Shown: positions 5,636-37,603 of the stretch, piece after piece | Numbering within the stretch: position 1 is the first letter of the stretch | Layout of the letters: each line of letters starts with the position of its first letter | Source of the DNA: an uncultured Gammaproteobacteria bacterium | Lineage (GTDB): Bacteria; Pseudomonadota; Gammaproteobacteria; Steroidobacterales; UBA11654 | Length of the DNA: 64,000 bases | Direction of reading: 5' to 3' | Assembly: GCA_902553145.1 (NCBI GenBank) | Contig: CACDKD010000002.1 | Coordinates: 160,990-224,989, forward strand | Notes under the pieces: model-generated | What the model saw: only the letters and a program-made list of their open reading frames with translations | Told to the model about the DNA's origin: nothing | The model's database searches: none | Program-made: the position numbers and the translations under genes

Positions 5636-6175
5636 TTATTCGGATTCTTCGGTATTTTCAGTATCAATGTTTTCTTCATTGATATTATCTTCTTCCTCTT
5701 CAGAATCCAAAGTATTTTTAATGGCGACTTCACCACCGACAACTTCCACGTTAATGATGACCTGAATTTCTGGATGAAATAGTAACTCTACATCATGTGA
5801 CCCAATCGTTTTAATTGGTCCCTCAGGCATATTGATATAACTTCTTTCTAGCTCTATGCCTTTTTCATTTGCTGCATTTGCTATATCAATTGTTCCAATT
5901 GAACCATAAAGCGTGCCCTCTTCTGTCACATTCGCTTCAATGGTCAATTTTAATCCCTCAAATGTCTGAGCTTTTTCTCGAAGCAAGGAGAGTTCTCCTT
6001 CTTGTTTCTTTCTGAGTTCTTCTTTTTGCTGTTCAAGGTTCTTGAGATTATCAGCAGTTGCGAAAACTGCCTTGCCCTGTGGAACAAGAAAATTTCTTCC
6101 ATAACCTGGCTTAACAGAAACAACGTCTCCTATTTCACCCAGGTTCTTAATGTCTTCTTTGAGTATAACTTCCAT
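5636..6175 (-). CDS. rplI: 50S ribosomal protein L9 with an acidic C-terminal extension
   Basis: MEVILKEDIKNLGEIGDVVSVKPGYGRNFLVPQGKA is canonical L9. The protein is 179 aa versus 149 in E. coli and ends ...DSEEEEDNINEENIDTENTEESE. Its stop directly abuts the dnaB start. Confidence 0.95.
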   Translation of the reverse strand: MEVILKEDIKNLGEIGDVVSVKPGYGRNFLVPQGKAVFATADNLKNLEQQKEELRKKQEGELSLLREKAQTFEGLKLTIEANVTEEGTLYGSIGTIDIANAANEKGIELERSYINMPEGPIKTIGSHDVELLFHPEIQVIINVEVVGGEVAIKNTLDSEEEEDNINEENIDTENTEESE

Positions 6176-9318: not shown

Positions 9319-10179
9319 TTATTCTGGGGATTGATTGTTTAAATACTTGAAGAAATCTCCTTCCGAATCAAGAACAAGTATGTCATTGGATGTCCCAATG
9401 GATGTCTTGTATGCCTCGATACTCCTGTAGAATGAGTAAAATTCACGATCTTTATTATATGCCGTTGCATAAACATTGGCAGCAGTTGCATCGCCTTCAC
9501 CTTTAATGATTTGTGAATCACGATTTGCGTTTGCAAGAATCTCTGTCCTTGCCCTGTCAGCTTCTGCTCTAATCACAGTGGCTTCTTCGCTTCCCTCTGC
9601 TCTTAGCTCTGAAGCGATTCTGGCTCTTTCCTGTCTCATTCTGTTGTAAACAGACTCACTGACGTCATCCGAGAGCTCGATTCTTTTTACTCTGACATCG
9701 ACTAATTCGATTCCTAAATTTCTCGCATTATTTGCCGCATCAGTCAACATTCCAGACATGAGCTCTCTTCTTTCCTTTGAGACAACCTCGACCACTGTTC
9801 TCTTTGCAAACTCAGAACGAAGTCCGTCTTTGACATTCTCTAGAAGTCGTTGTGCTGCTACAAGCTCATCGCCACCTGTTGATCTGTAGTAATCTGTTGA
9901 GTTAGCGATTCTCCATTTGATAAAAAAGTCCACAAATAGATTTTTCTTTTCAGCAGTCAAAAACAGTTCCTGAGGGTTATTAATCGTCAAAATCCTCTTG
10001 GGATACTTGTTTACATTATTCACAAACGGAAATTTAAAATGGATGCCTGGCTCATAATCAGATTGAATGATTTCACCGAATCTGAATTTAAGCGCCATCT
10101 CTCTCTCATCTACAGTAAATACACTGTTTGAAATGATTACAAATATAGCTACAAGTACGAATATAAATAAATTTTTCAT
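9319..10179 (-). CDS. hflC: protease modulator HflC (SPFH/band-7)
   Basis: 286 aa. N-terminal TM followed by an SPFH domain (F.V.E.E.A...RFGE). It immediately follows hflK. Confidence 0.92.
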   Translation of the reverse strand: MKNLFIFVLVAIFVIISNSVFTVDEREMALKFRFGEIIQSDYEPGIHFKFPFVNNVNKYPKRILTINNPQELFLTAEKKNLFVDFFIKWRIANSTDYYRSTGGDELVAAQRLLENVKDGLRSEFAKRTVVEVVSKERRELMSGMLTDAANNARNLGIELVDVRVKRIELSDDVSESVYNRMRQERARIASELRAEGSEEATVIRAEADRARTEILANANRDSQIIKGEGDATAANVYATAYNKDREFYSFYRSIEAYKTSIGTSNDILVLDSEGDFFKYLNNQSPE

Positions 10180-11273
10180 TATCTGACCCTCCTCATTCTA
10201 GGATCTTGAGAATTGGTAGTTGAATTCTGACGAGATGGTTGTGATGTTGCATTATTGCTTGTCTCGTTTTTCTGAGTGGAGTTTTGCTGAAGAAGCTTAT
10301 CTATTGGCAGGTACATCAAATTTCCACTGCCATCAGAGTCCATCAGGACCTTGTTTGAATTTCCATAAACATTTTCAATTGCTTCTATGTAGAGCCTCTC
10401 CCTGGTGACTTCTGGAGCCTTTTGATACTCTACCAATAACTTACTGAATCTTTCAGCCTCACCTTCTGAATCGGCAATTACTTTGGCTTTATATGCTTCA
10501 GCTTCCTGAATCATTTTAGCTGCATCACCTCTTGCTTTTGGGACGATATCATTCGCATACGCTTCAGCTTCGAAAGCATATCTCTCTTTATCCTCTCTCG
10601 CTTTGATTGCATCTTGTACAGCATTTTCTACTTGAACTGGAAAATTTGCATCTTGCAATGCAACCTGAGTTACAGTAATTCCTGTTCCGTATTCATCAAG
10701 TGTATTCTGAATAACTTCTTGTGTTTGAATGGCAATCGAAGAACGTCCTTCGGTCAATATAAAATCAAGATCCGTTTTCCCTGCAACCTCTCTGATTGCG
10801 CTTTCACTGACTTCGCTTAATGTCTCCTCTGGATCCCTAACATTAAAGAGATAGTCAACAGGATTTGTTTTTCGGTATTGGACGACAAGATCAACAACAA
10901 TGATGTTTTCATCTGAGGTAAGCATAGTGGTTTGTTGTTTAAATCGATTGACCACATTTACATTGACTATTTCAACTGACTCAATCGGCCATGGAACATG
11001 CCAACGAAGACCGGGTGTGGTTGTTTGACTGTATTCACCAAATCTCAATACAACTCCCCTTTCAGAGTCATCCACCTGATAGAGGCCAGTGAGAATCCAT
11101 AAAAATAAGCCGAGCACGATTAGTAGACTAGAAGGAGGCCCTTTCTTTTGTGAGCTTCCATTTGATGATCCACCAAAAAGTGTATTGAAACGTTTTTGCC
11201 ACTCATCAACTATCTGATCTAAATCAGGCGGTTGATCTTTTGAATCCCAAGGTGATTTACCGTTATTTGTCAT
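10179..11273 (-). CDS. hflK: protease modulator HflK (SPFH/band-7)
   Basis: 364 aa. N-terminus SPWD....PPDLDQI...QKRF, then a TM and an SPFH domain. Overlaps hflC by 1 nt. Confidence 0.92.
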   Translation of the reverse strand: MTNNGKSPWDSKDQPPDLDQIVDEWQKRFNTLFGGSSNGSSQKKGPPSSLLIVLGLFLWILTGLYQVDDSERGVVLRFGEYSQTTTPGLRWHVPWPIESVEIVNVNVVNRFKQQTTMLTSDENIIVVDLVVQYRKTNPVDYLFNVRDPEETLSEVSESAIREVAGKTDLDFILTEGRSSIAIQTQEVIQNTLDEYGTGITVTQVALQDANFPVQVENAVQDAIKAREDKERYAFEAEAYANDIVPKARGDAAKMIQEAEAYKAKVIADSEGEAERFSKLLVEYQKAPEVTRERLYIEAIENVYGNSNKVLMDSDGSGNLMYLPIDKLLQQNSTQKNETSNNATSQPSRQNSTTNSQDPRMRRVR

Positions 11274-29388: not shown

Positions 29389-29415
29389 CTAATTAATAAA
29401 AAATTGAGAAAAAAA

Positions 29416-30024
29416 ATGTTAACTCCAAGCGAAACCAAAACCTTAAAATTCATTCAAAAGTACTGCATTGAGAAGGGCTGCTCGCCTACCCTTACAGAAA
29501 TTGCCGATGGAATTGGTATTAAATCCAGGGGCGTTGTGCATCGATATATCAAGTCTCTTGAGTCCAAAAAATTACTCAGCGTAGCATCCAATAGAAAAAG
29601 AGGTATATGCCTCAATCTGGAAGCCTATGAAAATCAGTCCATCGCTCCCATTATTCCGCTGTTGGGGCGTATAGCAGCCGGGCAACCAATCGAAGCAATT
29701 GAGGATAGACATGAAATCAACCTTGCGGACTTTATCATGGATCCCGATCGATTTGCCTTACAGGTAACTGGTGAGTCAATGATGGATGCTGGCATACTTG
29801 ATGGGGACACGGTCATCATTAAGCATCAAAACACCGCAAACAATGGCGATATTGTTGTTGCCCTTATCGATGGTCTTGAGGCAACGCTGAAGCGCTTTAA
29901 AAGACTTCCCAAAGGAATGATACTTTTAATTCCAGAAAATAAATCCATGGAAGCAATTGCATATGAGGCTGAGCGTATTCAGATACAAGGAGTAGTTGTT
30001 GGCCAACTTAGAAGCTACCAATAA
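29416..30024 (+). CDS. lexA: SOS repressor LexA
   Basis: wHTH N-domain (MLTPSETKTLKFIQKY...PTLTEIADGIGIKSRGVVHRYIKSLE), cleavage site GRIAAGQPI, Ser VTGESMMDAGI and Lys ATLKRF. The track start is TTG 29404. ATG 29416 aligns better with LexA N-termini. Confidence 0.93.
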   Translation: MLTPSETKTLKFIQKYCIEKGCSPTLTEIADGIGIKSRGVVHRYIKSLESKKLLSVASNRKRGICLNLEAYENQSIAPIIPLLGRIAAGQPIEAIEDRHEINLADFIMDPDRFALQVTGESMMDAGILDGDTVIIKHQNTANNGDIVVALIDGLEATLKRFKRLPKGMILLIPENKSMEAIAYEAERIQIQGVVVGQLRSYQ

Positions 30025-31246
30025 AGATTCTTGGCCAAGAATCATCGCTCTGGTTGATATGAACTCTTTTTTTGCATCCATCGAGCAAATGGATTATCCG
30101 GAGTTGTATGGAAGACCCGTTGGCGTTACAAATGGTCTACAAGGGACTTGCATCATCACCTGCTCTTATGAGGCTCGTTCTTGGGGCATCAAAACGGGCA
30201 TGCGGTTAAAAGAAGCTAGAAAATTATGTCCAGACATCATTCAAAGGCCCTCCAGACCCAAAAGATATGCGCAAATTTCCACTCGTATCATGTCTGCGCT
30301 CAAGGCCGTTACTCCCGATATTGAAGTCTTCTCTGTTGATGAGGCATTCTTAGACCTAACCCACTGCAAGAAGATTATTCATTCACCAGAGCAAATAGCA
30401 AAAAGAATTCAAGATCTTGTATGCAACGTATCAGGAATATCTTGTTCGGTTGGTATAAGCGGAGATAAAACGACTGCAAAATATGCTGCCAAACAAGACA
30501 AGCCTTATGGGATCACAATCATCCCTCCTCTTGATGCTGAGTCTAGATTGAAGAATGTTCCAGTAGATCAATTGTGCGGTATTGGAAAAGGCATAAAAAG
30601 ATTTCTCAATTCGCATGGAGTATATAAATGTGGCGATATGAAAAACATTCCAATCAGTGTTCTTGGTAAGCACTTTGGGCATCCAGGTCGAAGAATTTGG
30701 CTGATGGCTCAAGGCAAGGATCCTGAACAAATACAGACCACTGTCGCTCCGCCAAAATCAATAGGTCATGGAAAAGTTATGCCTCCAGATACTCGTGATA
30801 AAAGAGTCATCCTTACTTACTTACAGCACATGAGTGAAAAAGTGGGTGCACGACTTAGAAAACACGACTTTAAATCTTCGGCATTCTTCATTGGATTAAA
30901 ATCTAAAAACGGTTGGATAGGATCAAAACTAAAACTTGCCTACTCTATTGATGATGGCCTGAAGATCATGCAGCTCGGGGAAAATATGATTAGAAGCAGA
31001 TGGCATGGAGAAGGCATTCATCAGATACAAGTTACTGCTCTTAATCCACAACAATCAAACCAGCAAATTGATTTCCTGGAACAAGGCGAACATGCGAATA
31101 TTGCTGTTAAAAATAGAGTCATAGATTCAATCAATGAGAAATATGGCAACCTAACGATCGCACCCAGTAACTTAATGCATAGGTCAAGCATGCCTGATGT
31201 AATTGCACCGGCTTGGAAACCATCCGGCCATAGACAAACAATATAA
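29996..31246 (+). CDS. dinB: Y-family DNA polymerase (Pol IV / UmuC-like)
   Basis: 416 aa. IIALVDMNSFFASIE, TCSYEARSWGIKTGM, catalytic SVDEAFLDLT, and GISGDKTTAKYAAK. The only in-frame start upstream of the catalytic Asp is TTG 29996/29999, inside the lexA 3' end. Subfamily (DinB versus UmuC) is uncertain. Confidence 0.85.
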   Translation: MLANLEATNKDSWPRIIALVDMNSFFASIEQMDYPELYGRPVGVTNGLQGTCIITCSYEARSWGIKTGMRLKEARKLCPDIIQRPSRPKRYAQISTRIMSALKAVTPDIEVFSVDEAFLDLTHCKKIIHSPEQIAKRIQDLVCNVSGISCSVGISGDKTTAKYAAKQDKPYGITIIPPLDAESRLKNVPVDQLCGIGKGIKRFLNSHGVYKCGDMKNIPISVLGKHFGHPGRRIWLMAQGKDPEQIQTTVAPPKSIGHGKVMPPDTRDKRVILTYLQHMSEKVGARLRKHDFKSSAFFIGLKSKNGWIGSKLKLAYSIDDGLKIMQLGENMIRSRWHGEGIHQIQVTALNPQQSNQQIDFLEQGEHANIAVKNRVIDSINEKYGNLTIAPSNLMHRSSMPDVIAPAWKPSGHRQTI

Positions 31247-31250
31247 CGAC

Positions 31251-31661
31251 ATGTGTGGCGGAGCTTCATATACGCATAACGGTGATCACATGAGGGTATA
31301 TTTCCCAAATCCAAAAGCAAAACTCCCTGTCATCACGAAAGAAAGTGATACGAAATTAATACTCTGGGGAAGGCGTAAAGGACAATCGGGAAAACTTCCA
31401 TTAGGAGGATGGGCAAGATTAGATTCGATTCATGCTGGAATATGGGACAGATGGTTTCCAAAACCTGTAAAAATACCCGTATTGAGCTTTATGGAAAAAG
31501 ATCATGAGGGAAAAAGTCATTGGTTTGATTTAGTTAAAGGGCAGTGGATACAAGGTTTAATAGCAGTAGAAAAACAAGAACAGAGACTATACGTAGTAAC
31601 AATTGAACCGGAGCTTGAACACAGCATTCATGATCGATGGCCTAGGGTTATGAGTGGTTAG
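31251..31661 (+). CDS. short SRAP (SOS response-associated peptidase, YedK/DUF159)-like protein
   Basis: Starts MCGG (Cys2 nucleophile position). LILWG, GWARLDS (compare INARVET), FME (compare FEW) and IHDRWPRV (compare IHDRRPLV) are collinear with E. coli YedK. It is only 136 aa. The track ORF starts at 31203 inside the polymerase gene. Confidence 0.6.
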   Translation: MCGGASYTHNGDHMRVYFPNPKAKLPVITKESDTKLILWGRRKGQSGKLPLGGWARLDSIHAGIWDRWFPKPVKIPVLSFMEKDHEGKSHWFDLVKGQWIQGLIAVEKQEQRLYVVTIEPELEHSIHDRWPRVMSG

Positions 31662-31667
31662 AGCGAG

Positions 31668-32336
31668 TTAATCTCGCTTTCGGTTTTGCCTTCTCCAATC
31701 TTCAGGATCTAAAAAATCACCGCTCCAAATACCTGCTCTATTAACCATGGCTTCTATCATCTCTTCTTCGTATCGAGTCGAATAGCGAATATAAGCAACT
31801 GCCATTCCGGTTCTGACCATTTCAGATTGCAAGTCGACACCGTTTGCATAGCAGATACTCAGCGTTCTTCCATATTTATCCTCGCCTTCATCTGTGCATT
31901 CAACTTCATTTTTTCCAATGAGCTTCTTTAAAGCAGCGGTAGCCTTCTTTCCACAAGCCCAAATTTTTCCATTGGGTCTTTCGCAGTACTGAGTCAATCC
32001 ATAGTAATAGGATTCAGGAGCATCAATGCCACTGAATCTGATCTTAGTGTTGCCGATGGTAATGGTATCTCCATCAACAACGGTGGCTTTTCCTTTGATA
32101 TAGATCTTATCTTTTCTCTCTTTTTGATTCGCTCGTTCATCTCCCAGAGTATCTTCACGATAGTCCTCTACAAGATTCATAGGTATCTCGTCCGATTGAA
32201 TTGGTGAGTCAGTCATCGGGATATCAAATGGATCCGGCTCATCATCAATTTCCTGAGCGATGATGTTAAATGCAAAGAATGAGATAACGACTAGGAAATA
32301 CATTACTGGTTTGCTTATTTTCATAGATCTGGTCAA
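31668..32336 (-). CDS. secreted staphylococcal-nuclease-like (SNase/thermonuclease) protein
   Basis: Signal or TM segment at the N-terminus. Then VVDGDTI......IR..GIDAPE and D.YGR....C......L...MV..G.A. Confidence 0.8.
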   Translation of the reverse strand: MTRSMKISKPVMYFLVVISFFAFNIIAQEIDDEPDPFDIPMTDSPIQSDEIPMNLVEDYREDTLGDERANQKERKDKIYIKGKATVVDGDTITIGNTKIRFSGIDAPESYYYGLTQYCERPNGKIWACGKKATAALKKLIGKNEVECTDEGEDKYGRTLSICYANGVDLQSEMVRTGMAVAYIRYSTRYEEEMIEAMVNRAGIWSGDFLDPEDWRRQNRKRD

Positions 32337-33136
32337 TTGGGCATCCTTTTATTGGTTAAATACTTACCTACTGTTTTGGTTAATATCTTCGGAATAACCA
32401 TTGAGATTAAAGCAAAGAACTTATTTAACCAACCATTAATGATTAAATTTTTTCCGCTCATAACCGCTTTATATCCTTGCTCTGCTACCTTTTCTGAACT
32501 CATCCATAAAAAATCAGGTGTGTTTGCAACCTCAGGCATATTTGCGGCAATATGAAATTCACTTCTGGTGAGTCCTGGACACAATGCCGTACAAAAAATG
32601 TTTTGATCCATGTATTCATAATGGATCCCTTCTGAGAGTTTGATTTGATAAATCTTTACAGGGCTGTAAAGACCCCCTCTGTCTGCGGGAGGTATATAAG
32701 GAGCCAAAGATGCAACGTTGATAATTCTTCCATACCGTCTATCGATCATTCCAGGCAAAAAGATATGTATCAGTTCTGTCACGGAACCAATCATCACCTG
32801 AATAAAATCGGAATGCTCATCCCATCTTACTTTTTCAAATGATTGTGGATTACCATAACCTGCATTATTAACCAGCGCATCAATGTGGATATTTTGCTCT
32901 TTGCAAAAGTTAAATATTTCTCTTGGTGCAACTTCATTGCTCAAGTCAGCTGAAATAATATGAATCTCTTGATTCTTTGATGTTTGCAATAAATTGGCTT
33001 TGATTGCTTCCAATCTATCCGTTCTCCTTGCGGTCAATACAAGATTGAAACCATTCTTAAAAAATACCTCTGCAAATGATTTGCCAATCCCTGCTGAAGC
33101 GCCAGTGATTAGAACAGTCTTGTTTTGATCACTCAT
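32333..33136 (-). CDS. short-chain dehydrogenase/reductase (SDR)
   Basis: 267 aa. VLITGASAGIGKSFA, NNAGYG, and the S...Y..K pattern (YSPVK). Hydrophobic C-terminal helix. Confidence 0.85.
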   Translation of the reverse strand: MSDQNKTVLITGASAGIGKSFAEVFFKNGFNLVLTARRTDRLEAIKANLLQTSKNQEIHIISADLSNEVAPREIFNFCKEQNIHIDALVNNAGYGNPQSFEKVRWDEHSDFIQVMIGSVTELIHIFLPGMIDRRYGRIINVASLAPYIPPADRGGLYSPVKIYQIKLSEGIHYEYMDQNIFCTALCPGLTRSEFHIAANMPEVANTPDFLWMSSEKVAEQGYKAVMSGKNLIINGWLNKFFALISMVIPKILTKTVGKYLTNKRMPN

Positions 33137-33161
33137 TTCAATTCTTTATAAGATTGAAACC

Positions 33162-33299
33162 TCATGAATCTTCCTTTATCAGATCTTTGATTTCTTTCTT
33201 TTGATTTTTTCTTTTATATCTTTTTTTAGGCTCATGAATTTTCGAAATAGCATGAGCAGGTGATTTTTTTCTAGTTTTAATATTCTTCTTGTCTGTCAT
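33162..33299 (-). CDS. candidate 45-aa lysine-rich basic protein (below the ORF-track size cutoff)
   Basis: Hand translation: MTDKKNIKTRKKSPAHAISKIHEPKKRYKRKNQKKEIKDLIKEDS*. Its ATG overlaps the TGA of the upstream cytochrome gene as ATGA. It fills most of an otherwise empty 159-bp gap in a tight operon. The AT-rich background makes K-rich ORFs easy to get by chance. Confidence 0.35.
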   Translation of the reverse strand: MTDKKNIKTRKKSPAHAISKIHEPKKRYKRKNQKKEIKDLIKEDS

Positions 33300-34312
33300 T
33301 GCATCTCACTAATCCATTCTGTAATAAGATCAATGGCCTCAATATGCATCAGAGATCTTCCTGATTCAGGCATCATGATGTCTGGTTCATTGGAAAGCAT
33401 TCGAAATAAAAGGATCGATTCTTCAGGATGGCCCGGAACAATCGAGTAGCTCAGCCCCCCGCTTCCTCTTCCCGCAGCAACCGGTTTCTTGTATATGCCA
33501 AATTCTTCGTCATCAATTGATAAATACAAACCCGATGAACTTGCAGAACCTTCTGAAGAATGGCAATGGCCACAATTTATATCTAGATATGATCTTGCTC
33601 TATTGTCGATATCATAATTCTGATCAAATGCATCCACCATTAAATAATTTGAATACCTCTTTTCCTCTAGAAACCCCAAGGTTGTCCAATGACTAATTTG
33701 ATTGGTCATTTCTTGGTTCTGATAAGAAATCGCCTTATTGATGTTTCTTGGCTTGGGTCCTATAGGTTCTACAACATCATTCTTTAAATGGCATTCTTTG
33801 CATTGATTCTTGTTCGGTGCTCTATACCTTATGCTGGCTGCATTTGAAGGAGTGATGACATCAGTCACTTCAATGGTCTTGCCGCCCAATGCCAAGTAAG
33901 CGTCTCCTTTCTCAATATCCCAGACATACGTCAATGCATCCCATCCATTTTTTCTATTAAGCAATAAACGAGTTTCAAGCAGCAGTGTCCCGCCATCGAT
34001 GTTTTGATAAGAAAAAGTTTTAATTAGTGCTGCACCGATCGGAAAATTAAAAACTTCTTCGCCATTATATTTTGCAGTTGTGCCATCCGGTAGATAAACA
34101 AAACGGTGCTTATCCGTGTAGTCAGAGAAGAGTGATGTGATGAGCTCATAAGGGACCACATCATCGTTTGGGATTTGCCTTAATGGATCAGAAAAAAAAT
34201 TAAACTCAGACAATGTCTTTGGTGTTTGATCAGAAAGAATCGCATCGTCATTTACTGCAATAGCACTGCTTGAGAAGCATATCAAAATGAAACAAATCAG
34301 TAGGTTCTTCAT
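33296..34312 (-). CDS. periplasmic diheme c-type cytochrome (SO_2930/HNE_0200-like family)
   Basis: 338 aa. Signal peptide and two CXXCH motifs (NQCKECH and INCGHCH). It is paired with a parallel beta-helix protein, the known partner of this family (recalled TIGR03805/TIGR03806 pairing). Confidence 0.7.
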   Translation of the reverse strand: MKNLLICFILICFSSSAIAVNDDAILSDQTPKTLSEFNFFSDPLRQIPNDDVVPYELITSLFSDYTDKHRFVYLPDGTTAKYNGEEVFNFPIGAALIKTFSYQNIDGGTLLLETRLLLNRKNGWDALTYVWDIEKGDAYLALGGKTIEVTDVITPSNAASIRYRAPNKNQCKECHLKNDVVEPIGPKPRNINKAISYQNQEMTNQISHWTTLGFLEEKRYSNYLMVDAFDQNYDIDNRARSYLDINCGHCHSSEGSASSSGLYLSIDDEEFGIYKKPVAAGRGSGGLSYSIVPGHPEESILLFRMLSNEPDIMMPESGRSLMHIEAIDLITEWISEMQ

Positions 34313-34318
34313 GTTTTC

Positions 34319-35572
34319 TTAGTCAATTATGACTGGGGTTAGGGGTGTTATTGTTCCAGAATATGCAGACTGATCCCGACTAAGTTGATTTGGTAATGAA
34401 AGCATGTACCTTATCGGATTCATTACAGCAAAACCTATCTCCCCATTATCTTTTATAATCAATCTATCTTCTTCGGGCTGTCCTAAAATCATTTGTTTTA
34501 TGGGTAAAACGCCGTCCCAGAAAACATCCGGCATATCCCCTTTTGATATCTCAAATAGAATGGATGCAATGTCCTTATCTAAATCTGGGTTATTGCCTGA
34601 CCGACTGATTGCATTATTGTGTATTTGAACCGATTTAGGATGTGGATAATATCCAGAATCAGTAAAATCAACCGAGTCACCGTCATTGATGTAACTCACC
34701 ACAGCAATGCCAACGGTTTCATGATCCTCAATTTGATTATTAAAGATCTCGACATTTGAATTTGCCATGATAATTATTCCTGTTCCACGAGGGACTTCCC
34801 CAACAATGTTCCCTTCGGGAGCGAAATTATCTGTGTTGTTATCCGATATTGAGTTATCAAAAACCCTCACATCATGCCCGCCTTGCTGCGGTAAACCAGG
34901 CAAATCGAAGACTAGGATTCCTCCTGTATTATTGACAGCGGTATTGTTGTAAACATCGGCATAATAAGAATTTTCAATCTCAATTCCTGCGACATTAAAT
35001 TTTGCAATGGAGTTTCTAACAATAATATTCTCAGACTGGCCGACATAGATGCCTGCATCAGATGCTCCAATTGCAATGCAACCCTCTATAAGGACATTTT
35101 TTGACTCCACTGGGTATAAGCCATAAGCCCCATTCGTTGACAAAGGTCCACCCGACCATTCAGTTCTAATATTGATAAAAGATATTCCATCGCTGCCTTT
35201 AACTTTGATGGCATCTCCTTTTGTATCCAATACAGCAAAGTCTCTCAAAACGACATCATCCGAAGTAACCATAAGTCCTTGCGCACCTGATTTTTGCTCA
35301 GAAAAATCTAAGATCGTTTCTTCGTGACCATTCCCTTGAATCGTAACACTATCAATATCCAAAGAGAGACTGTCTTCAAGCTCATAAATGCCTGAAGTGA
35401 GCTGAACAATATCGCCAGGCTCTGCAAGAATTAGAGCCTCTTGTAGTCGCTCCTGAGAGTTTTCAGAAGGTGCAATGATGATCACTTCAGAATAAACATC
35501 AAATGACAATGCTAAAAAACATCCGATGATTAGAATCAAGAAATCCTTTCTCAAACGTTTTACCATCCGCAT
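34319..35572 (-). CDS. exported parallel beta-helix repeat protein (NosD-like)
   Basis: 417 aa. Signal peptide, then repeated beta-helix turns: VLIEGCIAIGASDAGIYVGQSENIIVRNSIAKFNVAGIEIENSYYADVYNNTAVNNTGGILVF. Confidence 0.75.
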   Translation of the reverse strand: MRMVKRLRKDFLILIIGCFLALSFDVYSEVIIIAPSENSQERLQEALILAEPGDIVQLTSGIYELEDSLSLDIDSVTIQGNGHEETILDFSEQKSGAQGLMVTSDDVVLRDFAVLDTKGDAIKVKGSDGISFINIRTEWSGGPLSTNGAYGLYPVESKNVLIEGCIAIGASDAGIYVGQSENIIVRNSIAKFNVAGIEIENSYYADVYNNTAVNNTGGILVFDLPGLPQQGGHDVRVFDNSISDNNTDNFAPEGNIVGEVPRGTGIIIMANSNVEIFNNQIEDHETVGIAVVSYINDGDSVDFTDSGYYPHPKSVQIHNNAISRSGNNPDLDKDIASILFEISKGDMPDVFWDGVLPIKQMILGQPEEDRLIIKDNGEIGFAVMNPIRYMLSLPNQLSRDQSAYSGTITPLTPVIID

Positions 35573-37368
35573 GCCCTTCCCTCATTTTGATCATCCAGCC
35601 ATTCTTTCAAAGGCTCATAATAATTTAACAATGATTTTCCACTGAGTGTCCGCTGACCAGTGATTTTCTCAAGAGCATCGGGCCAAGGCTCACTTTGACC
35701 AACAGCCAACATATTTCTCAAACGTAAACCCGCTTCCTTATTTCCATAAATAGAGCATTCATGTAAATCTCCATCAAACCCCATTGACTCACACAATGCT
35801 TCATGAAACTGGTACTGCAATACCCTTGCAAGATAATATCTTGTATAAGGTGTATTACCTGGAATATGGTATTTTGCTCCGGGATCAAAAGCATCTACTG
35901 GTCTCTCAATCGGAGATGCAACGCCTTGATATTTCTCCCTCAATTCCCACCAGTAGTCATTGAGTTGATCGTCACTCAGATTTCCATCAAAAACAGCCAT
36001 TCTCCATTTATCAAGCATCAAGGTCCATGGCACAGCAACAACTCCTTCTAATGCTTGTTTCATTAGCAAACCAATCGCATTTTCCTTGCTTCTCTCAGCC
36101 TCTTCCTCAGATATAAAATCAATGTCTTTCAAATAACTTGGCGTGATTGACAAGGACAATAAATCTCCCACAGCCTCATGAAATCCATCATTTGCCCCAC
36201 TCTGAAAGACCTCAGGAAGGTCGGCATATGCCTGATAGTAAAAGATATGTCCAAGCTCATGATGAATAGTAATAAAGTCTTCTTCATTCTTTTGTATACA
36301 CATTTTAATTCTAAGATCTTGTTTTTGACTGTCTATATCCCAAGCGCTCGCGTGACAAACAACATCTCTGTCTTTTGGTTTTACAAATAAAGATCGATCC
36401 CAGAAAGTATCCGTCAATGGATCAAAACCCAATGACAAAAAGAATGATTCAGCAATCTCGACCATTTCGACCTCTGATAGCTCTCTATCTAATATGATTT
36501 GAGTGAGATCTATTGAACTGGTGTCATCAAAATCATAGACAATATCTGAGATATTACTCCAAGATTGAGCCCACATATTGCCGAGCAAGTGAGCAGGTAT
36601 AGGCTTATCGATAGGAACAATTTCATCTCCATAATAATCATTCAGCTCAGCCCTGACATGGCATTGCAAACTTTCATAAAGTGGACGCATATCTTCATAG
36701 ACCTGATCAACAAGCAAAGAAAATTCCTCGTTGGACATGTCGTATTTACTGAACCAGAGATCCGATAAGCCACTAAATCCAAGATCACTTGATCCTTGGT
36801 TTCCAATTTCAACCATTCTTAAGTACTTGTCCTTCATGGGTGGGCTGATTTGCCTCCAACCGCTCCATGCTTTCAAAAGCTCATCGGGATCTCTTGAGTT
36901 ATCAATAATTGACTCAAATGCTTCCAAGTCATAGCAGTCGTCTTCCCTAAAACAATGTTTGCCCGTGCCATACATGGCTTCAAGTTCAGTCATAATCTGA
37001 GAGAGTTCACCGGCAAGATCTTCATCGAGTGGAGGTGGCATAACAAAACCATTCTTGATTAAATTAAGGGCTCTTCGATCCAAAGGATCAAGGTCTAAAC
37101 CGTCAAATGATGCAGCTGTTCTGGCAGACTCTAAAGCATCAAGGGTATATCTCTTTGAGTAATCTGCAGCGATCACTTGGGAATCATGGCTGATAAAGTT
37201 TGATGCTATCCAAAAAGCTGAAGATATCACAGGAGCATCTTGAGTGTATTTCTTCTCGTACTCAGAAAGGAATTCCTTAACGTCATCTTCTGAAAGGTTA
37301 CTTCCTTGATCATTGGAGCAACCAACAATGAGAGCAAGAATGCATATGCTTAAAAATATTTTTTTCAT
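35560..37368 (-). CDS. peptidyl-dipeptidase A / angiotensin-converting-enzyme-like M2 metallopeptidase, lipoprotein
   Basis: 602 aa. Lipobox LIVGC. Zinc motif HHELGHIFYYQAY plus downstream FHEAVGD, matching the ACE HHEMGH...HEAIGD arrangement. Confidence 0.8.
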   Translation of the reverse strand: MKKIFLSICILALIVGCSNDQGSNLSEDDVKEFLSEYEKKYTQDAPVISSAFWIASNFISHDSQVIAADYSKRYTLDALESARTAASFDGLDLDPLDRRALNLIKNGFVMPPPLDEDLAGELSQIMTELEAMYGTGKHCFREDDCYDLEAFESIIDNSRDPDELLKAWSGWRQISPPMKDKYLRMVEIGNQGSSDLGFSGLSDLWFSKYDMSNEEFSLLVDQVYEDMRPLYESLQCHVRAELNDYYGDEIVPIDKPIPAHLLGNMWAQSWSNISDIVYDFDDTSSIDLTQIILDRELSEVEMVEIAESFFLSLGFDPLTDTFWDRSLFVKPKDRDVVCHASAWDIDSQKQDLRIKMCIQKNEEDFITIHHELGHIFYYQAYADLPEVFQSGANDGFHEAVGDLLSLSITPSYLKDIDFISEEEAERSKENAIGLLMKQALEGVVAVPWTLMLDKWRMAVFDGNLSDDQLNDYWWELREKYQGVASPIERPVDAFDPGAKYHIPGNTPYTRYYLARVLQYQFHEALCESMGFDGDLHECSIYGNKEAGLRLRNMLAVGQSEPWPDALEKITGQRTLSGKSLLNYYEPLKEWLDDQNEGRACGW

Positions 37369-37408: not shown

Positions 37409-37603
37409 TCAGAATAGATCTGTTTCATTGGTGTAAGTAACCTTATCAAACTCATTTTCCTGATTAATGGTAATTATGATTGGTGAGCAGCAAACAAAAC
37501 AATCTTCAGTATATTTTTGTTCACTAATTGAGGCATCAATTACAATCGTAATTCGTTCACCACAGTTTGGGCAAACTATTTCATATTCATCAAGAAGTGA
37601 CAT
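37409..37603 (-). CDS. CPXCG-motif cysteine-rich small protein (zinc-ribbon-like)
   Basis: 64 aa. CPNCG ... CFVCC, i.e. four or five Cys arranged as two knuckles. Confidence 0.7.
   Translation of the reverse strand: MSLLDEYEIVCPNCGERITIVIDASISEQKYTEDCFVCCSPIIITINQENEFDKVTYTNETDLF

Follow-up and report, generated by a model that had tools for sequence, protein, structure and literature searches.

Gene string and spacing

A string of six minus-strand open reading frames (ORFs) lies in a 64,000-nucleotide stretch of DNA (the window; contig CACDKD010000002.1, positions 160,990 to 224,989) from an uncultured gammaproteobacterium. In the direction of transcription, it encodes an M2 peptidase related to angiotensin-converting enzyme (ACE), a parallel beta-helix protein, a diheme cytochrome c, a basic protein of 45 amino acids (aa), a short-chain dehydrogenase/reductase (SDR) and a nuclease of the staphylococcal-nuclease (SNase) fold (Table 1). 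The ORF list and the profile scans returned the same six ORFs, junctions and family assignments as a first-pass annotation, which had regarded the string as one tight operon of mostly exported proteins. Pfam and NCBIfam scans confirmed the five named families, and the N-terminal signal or lipobox ascribed to the peptidase, the beta-helix protein, the cytochrome and the nuclease was also seen by inspection. The analysis points to another reading of the string as a whole: it is probably a row of independent units pushed together by reductive evolution, one of which, the beta-helix/cytochrome pair, is an autonomous and widespread two-gene module.

The M2 and beta-helix genes overlap by 13 nucleotides (nt), or by 7 nt with the second ATG, and a Shine-Dalgarno-like sequence (GAGGGAAGGG) lies within the 3' end of the M2 gene. 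A gap of 6 nt separates the beta-helix and cytochrome genes, an ATGA overlap joins the latter to the 45-aa ORF, and the SDR gene follows after 25 nt. These junctions are as first described. The 4-nt overlap given for the SDR and SNase genes exists only if the SNase gene uses a TTG start (32336); an ATG at 32324 (MKISKPV..., 218 aa) is the more likely start, since relatives are called at 218 aa and it provides a clean signal peptide (...NIIA before and QE after the cleavage site, by inspection), so that a gap of 8 nt would remain. A tRNA-Ser gene and a CPXCG zinc-ribbon gene lie upstream of the M2 gene. The gene order is identical in L101 and L102 (L numbers designate the loci compared), two independent assemblies that are ~98% identical to the window, which rules out a misassembly. 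A sequence scan detected no terminator-like sites on the minus strand within 31668-37368; as it gave fewer promoter-like sites than shuffled sequence does, the scan carries little information. Overlaps, short gaps and the lack of terminator-like sites are indirect indications that the string is probably co-transcribed.

This spacing is the norm in the window. Coding density amounts to 94.5% over the 64 kb (ORFs of at least 100 aa), with a GC content of ~38% in this genome. The same-strand neighbour pairs (n = 43) are separated by a median of 6 nt; overlaps occur in 16 of them, 31 lie at most 25 nt apart, and these closely spaced pairs include plainly unrelated housekeeping genes. The window belongs to a streamlined genome in which almost everything resembles an operon, and the tight spacing of the six genes is therefore not meaningful in itself.

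Table 1. Positions of the genes and of the deletion scar in the window
Feature	Position	Strand	Profile or basis
M2 (ACE-like) zinc metallopeptidase, predicted lipoprotein	35560..37368	-	PF01401
Exported parallel beta-helix protein, first gene of the conserved pair	34319..35572	-	TIGR03805
Diheme c-type cytochrome of the SO2930 family, exported; follows the beta-helix gene in the pair	33296..34312	-	TIGR03806
45-aa basic ORF	33162..33299	-	no family
Spacer with the scar of a 367-bp crcB deletion	33137..33161	.	blastn vs L101
Short-chain dehydrogenase/reductase (SDR)	32333..33136	-	PF00106
Secreted staphylococcal-nuclease-fold nuclease (SNase)	31668..32336	-	PF00565
CPXCG zinc-ribbon protein, 64 aa, upstream neighbour of M2	37409..37603	-	PF14255 (E 2e-16)

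Conservation of the beta-helix/cytochrome pair

Homologues of the cytochrome are plentiful in marine metagenomes (6,562 at E ≤ 1e-5 in a protein search). A species-level scan with one genome per GTDB species gave at least 574 confirmed cytochrome matches, the best 80 of which were used for neighbourhood analysis; contigs with cytochrome homologues were also compared at graded identity, and all loci were searched with the proteins of the window. In 79 of the 80 species loci, the gene immediately upstream of the cytochrome gene is the beta-helix gene. Where both ORFs were called, the two genes overlap or are separated by at most 10 nt in 62 out of 69 loci. Loci bearing the pair are labelled SAR86, SAR92, Kordiimonas, Parvibaculum, Sphingomonadales, Rhizobiaceae and Phenylobacterium. 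Clustering of the neighbour ORFs of the 80 loci, with Pfam annotation of the representatives, yielded no universal third partner; the recurrent neighbours are lineage-specific only. Given the adjacency in 79 of 80 loci and the lack of such a partner, the pair is an autonomous two-gene module, and on this point the first-pass annotation, which had described the pair as a conserved two-gene module, is borne out. It had also asked whether M2 peptidases co-occur with such pairs across genomes. In the 77 loci outside the window's clade, no M2, SDR or SNase gene occurs within 8 kb of the pair.

The commonest neighbour across lineages is a TonB-dependent receptor gene (21 loci). It lies directly downstream of the cytochrome gene in Kordiimonas-type loci (L063, L070, L072 and L084) and ahead of the beta-helix gene in some loci of the window's clade (L009-12 and L095/96). 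The order in the Kordiimonas-type alphaproteobacteria is a divergent TetR gene, the beta-helix gene, the cytochrome gene and the receptor gene, and a divergent TetR regulator is found upstream of the pair in eight alphaproteobacterial loci. The proximity of the receptor hints that the pair would act on an imported substrate. In 18 loci from SAR86 and Sphingomonadales, a DUF2147 gene adjoins the cytochrome gene, on the same strand in L020-L049 and on the opposite strand in L073, L082, L083, L086 and L093. Neighbours of the pair in SAR86 families further comprise DUF4399, a fatty-acid hydroxylase, an AurF-like protein and CobS/CobT.

Both proteins of the window score above the cut-offs of their families: the beta-helix protein reaches 429.1 bits against TIGR03805 (cut-off 141.5; model positions 1-314 of 314) and the cytochrome 345.8 bits against TIGR03806, 'SO2930 family diheme c-type cytochrome' (cut-off 313.3). 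With the known TIGR03805/TIGR03806 pair, whose cytochrome is of the SO2930/HNE_0200 family (Shewanella oneidensis SO_2930/SO_2931), they also share the export of both proteins and, as in 79 of 80 other genomes, the gene order and the tight coupling. The pair of the window's clade differs in that a coupled gene for a 45-aa basic protein comes after it and, in some of the clade, an overlapping M2 gene comes before it. A literature search returned no functional study of TIGR03805, TIGR03806 or SO_2930, only a table listing SO_2930/SO_2931 as outer-membrane or extracellular c-type cytochromes.

Predicted properties of the two proteins

The N-terminus of the beta-helix protein is hydrophobic (by inspection). 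Its AlphaFold2 model (predicted local distance difference test (pLDDT) score of 77) has as top Foldseek matches the RbmB lyase (9ozd), the AlgE4 epimerase (2pyg), PL6 alginate lyases and GH28 polygalacturonases, with E-values of 1e-6 to 1e-3. The protein resembles these carbohydrate-active enzymes in its predicted fold and in a row of acidic residues (D172, E198/E200, D223 and D248) that are invariant and lie on successive turns of the beta-helix. It differs from them in that the identity is only 12-18%, with template modelling (TM) scores of 0.3-0.5, and in that it has a cytochrome as partner. We know of no obligate cytochrome partner among the RbmB, AlgE4, PL6 and GH28 enzymes. A match of the beta-helix protein to a CAZy-type family was not obtained.

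The Pfam scan assigns a NosD domain to the beta-helix protein (E 3e-11). Like NosD of the NosDFY system for nitrous-oxide-reductase maturation, it is periplasmic. Its obligate partner is a redox protein. It might be a NosD-like maturation factor that supplies a periplasmic metalloprotein with a sulfur or metal species, the cytochrome being the client or electron donor, but we consider this quite unlikely. Unlike NosD, the protein fails the NosD equivalog model TIGR04247 (32.5 bits versus a cut-off of 300), on which ground membership of NosD itself was rejected. In addition, no nosZ/F/Y/L-like partner recurs among the 80 neighbourhoods, and the top structural matches are lyases, epimerases and hydrolases, while a NosD structure is absent from the Foldseek top 50.

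The two CXXCH motifs of the cytochrome (CKECH at 171-175 and CGHCH at 247-251) are invariant in 38 sequences. A conserved MMPE motif occurs near the C-terminus, and a signal peptide is apparent by inspection (...SSAIA before and VND after the cleavage site). No solved relative was found in the Protein Data Bank (PDB), neither by sequence nor by a Foldseek search by fold (best E 0.037), for which a structure model of medium quality (pLDDT 65) was used. The region of the second heme bears a weak, sub-threshold resemblance to the Planctomycete PSCyt1 domain.

The M2 peptidase and its adjacency to the pair

The M2 protein gives a full-length match to the Peptidase_M2 profile (PF01401; positions 3-581 of 581, E 9e-199) and also matches the ACE chains of the PDB, with E-values of 1e-134 to 8e-258 (1e-134 for the ACE C-domain). 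Its zinc site consists of HHELGH at residues 369-374 and E398, a third, glutamate ligand located 24 residues downstream. A lipobox (IVGC, by inspection) with Cys17 makes it a predicted lipoprotein. Cys17, H370, E371, H374 and E398 are invariant in 13 homologues. A bacterial ACE homologue of peptidase family M2 is XcACE of Xanthomonas (PMC3235092). Like such homologues, the M2 peptidase of the window is a single-domain protein of ~600 aa with HEXXH...E zinc ligands that matches human and insect ACE structures; unlike them, it is a predicted lipoprotein, and the 3' end of its gene overlaps a beta-helix gene in one marine clade. The enzymology of XcACE was reportedly the subject of work by Riviere et al. 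in 2007.

The M2 gene immediately precedes the beta-helix gene in the window, L101/102, L013, L094, L014-16 and L103-119. More than 20 loci of one clade share the 13-nt overlap at this junction, with ATG, GTG or TTG as the start of the beta-helix gene, so the adjacency is not peculiar to the window genome and the first-pass reading does not fall on a lack of conservation elsewhere. The M2 gene is missing, with the pair and the 45-aa ORF, SDR and SNase genes kept, from L009-12 (cytochrome 81% identical), L001-3 (75%) and L004-8 (54-55%). In a neighbour-joining tree of the cytochrome, M2-bearing and M2-lacking lineages are interleaved in all three subclades. Because the same 13-nt overlap is found everywhere, a single origin of the junction followed by at least three losses of M2, with the pair retained, is the simplest history.

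A scan centred on M2 shows how far the adjacency extends. At an M2 identity of at least 80%, the beta-helix gene is directly downstream in 11 out of 11 evaluable loci; at 70-80% this drops to 6 out of 25, and at 60-70% to none of 42. More distant M2 genes adjoin EF-P/ExbBD-TonB or other unrelated genes. In one lineage, 6.4 kb and four genes, including an opposite-strand MTHFR gene, separate M2 from the beta-helix gene. Among 10 lineages sampled by their cytochromes, M2 is retained in the block in 6 and crcB, a clearly unrelated fluoride channel gene, in 7. The adjacency of M2 is thus real and inherited, yet limited to one marine gammaproteobacterial clade and dispensable.

These data bear directly on the possibility that M2 is a true though dispensable accessory of the beta-helix/cytochrome module in this clade, perhaps together with the 45-aa protein. 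The lipoprotein peptidase would then trim the peptide part of a glycopeptide or a proteoglycan-like marine polymer of which the beta-helix protein handles the glycan, and the 13-nt overlap would, by co-translation, hold the two proteins at matched levels. The conservation of this overlap in loci with cytochrome identities of 52-98%, the 11 out of 11 close M2 homologues followed by the beta-helix gene, and the export of all three proteins agree with such a role. Nonetheless, it appears unlikely to us in view of the repeated M2 losses with retention of the pair, the 77 loci outside the clade without M2 beside the pair, the disappearance of the adjacency at 60-70% M2 identity and the lineage with four intervening genes; moreover, crcB is retained in the string about equally often as M2.

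The CPXCG gene heads the order CPXCG-M2-beta-helix in L101 and L103; in the M2-lacking loci L009-12 its immediate downstream neighbour is the beta-helix gene. It is also found near M2 in a second M2 lineage (71-72% identity; L097/L098 at 5699-5890 and L127/L128), with no pair nearby. In L016 (5178-7559), a GTDB representative, the M2 and beta-helix matches are truncated and the SDR gene is missing, which may reflect pseudogenisation or assembly errors of a metagenome-assembled genome.

A variable block in the window's clade

The window's clade consists of uncultured marine gammaproteobacteria, for which some GTDB representatives are labelled Woeseia sp. or 'uncultured gamma proteobacterium'. 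Its members share a syntenic block that reads [CPXCG]-[M2]-beta-helix-cytochrome-45-aa ORF-[MBL]-[crcB]-SDR-SNase, in which the bracketed genes are variable and MBL denotes a protein of the metallo-beta-lactamase fold. The crcB and MBL genes occur in the middle of the string in every combination among relatives. All bracketed genes are present in L103 (M2 95% identical), L101 (98% identical to the window) has crcB and no MBL gene, and the window has neither. A blastn comparison with L101 reveals how crcB was lost: a clean deletion of 367 bp (L101 positions 10161-10527), with the junction at about 33156-33161 in the window, where the two alignments share 6 nt and the flanks are 98.4-98.7% identical. 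No crcB was found elsewhere in the window. The six-gene 'operon' is hence the most reduced state of a block that usually has crcB, and often MBL, in its middle.

The SDR matches PF00106 (adh_short; E 4e-36) and stays below the cut-off of every NCBIfam equivalog. It has no signal peptide and would be cytoplasmic or membrane-associated. The SNase covers positions 1-106 of the 107 of PF00565 (E 2e-16), and all NCBIfam nuclease equivalogs remain below their cut-offs. Both genes are paired throughout the clade, downstream of the beta-helix/cytochrome pair. Beyond the SNase gene, the clade loci carry on the opposite strand a 136-aa ORF, DinB and LexA, and then FabA-FabB.

The first-pass annotation had taken the whole string for a single module, periplasmic or at the outer surface, which would process peptides and nucleic acids of high molecular weight and be linked to a redox step. 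Export signals are indeed present on four of its six products, internal terminator-like sites are absent, and the SDR and SNase genes remain downstream of the pair throughout the clade. Still, we regard such a system as very improbable. Co-inheritance of the six genes does not exceed the background synteny: the SDR and SNase genes are never found near the pair outside the clade, crcB and/or MBL separate them from the pair in relatives, and M2, MBL and crcB vary independently. Two of the products, the SDR and the 45-aa protein, lack signals and would be cytoplasmic, which does not fit one periplasmic module. The spacing equals the genome norm, as shown above. Conserved gene order has little functional weight here either, as the synteny of the block also spans the plainly unrelated LexA-DinB and FabA-FabB genes.

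As a separate observation, LexA, DinB and the ~136-aa ORF (31203-31661 as listed) form a co-oriented trio (29404-31661, plus strand) that converges on the SNase gene in every clade locus. The ~136-aa ORF has no Pfam match and may be an uncharacterised member of the SOS regulon.

A clade-restricted small basic protein

The 45-aa ORF directly follows the cytochrome gene in every clade locus and is absent from that position in other clades. Across the clade, the junction is mostly the same 4-nt overlap, and otherwise a gap of 5-10 nt. Ten residues (M1, K5, R10, K11, P14, K20, H22, Y28, R30 and K35) are invariant in 10 sequences. Between the window and L013, there are 4, 4 and 20 substitutions at the first, second and third codon positions, respectively; this concentration at third positions marks the ORF as a translated gene under purifying selection. 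A full HMMER search retrieved only three relatives among 1.84 billion representative proteins, and neither Pfam nor NCBIfam contains a matching family. The protein is therefore a new, clade-restricted small-protein family that is translationally coupled to the cytochrome. As it is very basic (~38% Lys/Arg) and has no export signal, it would probably be a cytoplasmic protein that binds nucleic acid or the ribosome. A KxxYxRK motif brought ArfA forward as a candidate; this identity was rejected after an alignment with hhalign (probability 0.6%, E 0.1, 15 columns).

Interpretation

Taken together, we favour the view that the co-oriented string has probably arisen as a set of independent units that reductive evolution pushed together in a streamlined, putatively SAR86-like marine gammaproteobacterial genome. 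The first unit would be an ACE-like dipeptidyl carboxypeptidase, anchored in the outer membrane, which shortens oligopeptides either in the periplasm or on the outside of the cell, a role suggested by its membership of family M2. The second unit is the widespread pair in which both the beta-helix protein and the diheme cytochrome c are exported; its genes are co-inherited everywhere and mostly coupled in translation, and in this clade the presumably cytoplasmic 45-aa protein follows. As a working mechanism of low confidence, the beta-helix protein would bind or cleave a periplasmic polymer, an anionic glycan or the like, and a dedicated diheme cytochrome would carry electrons between this reaction and the respiratory chain. 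The third unit would comprise the SDR and the secreted nuclease, a clade-specific pairing. The ancestral block likely had the order CPXCG-M2-beta-helix-cytochrome-45-aa ORF-MBL-crcB-SDR-SNase that is still seen in L103, and M2, MBL and crcB would have been lost independently in different lineages. The string of the window looks like a compact six-gene operon because both MBL and crcB have been lost.

Several points weigh against this view. The overlap between the M2 and beta-helix genes has been kept across lineages whose cytochromes are 52-58% identical (L014-16 and L118-119), a longer persistence than mere chance would require. Since the two genes share 13 nt, a promoter for the beta-helix gene alone could only lie within the M2 coding region, and both are therefore presumably co-expressed here. 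The presence of three exported products of hydrolase type, namely the peptidase, the putative glycan-active protein and the nuclease, is loosely consistent with a shared scavenging role. Finally, the chemistry ascribed to the pair rests on a generic fold likeness and on the medium-quality cytochrome model. One might envisage that M2, the beta-helix protein, the cytochrome and the 45-aa protein form one co-translated system that includes a redox step and acts on a substrate with both peptide and glycan parts. We deem this decidedly unlikely; if true, the repeated M2 losses would mark lineages that abandoned such a substrate. To our knowledge, no known glycan- or peptide-degrading system uses such a redox step.

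Under the favoured view of independent units, the unusual gene combination is mostly a product of genome compaction and not a new pathway. A more general caution follows: in streamlined marine genomes, neither overlapping co-oriented genes nor a gene order conserved within a clade indicates by itself a shared pathway. The fluoride channel gene inside the same string of a strain that is 98% identical illustrates this. What lasts from the locus are a widespread, uncharacterised beta-helix/cytochrome pair and a clade-restricted small protein coupled to the cytochrome. The pair is abundant, yet without a solved structure or a published function, and its strict two-gene autonomy recommends it for expression and activity assays.

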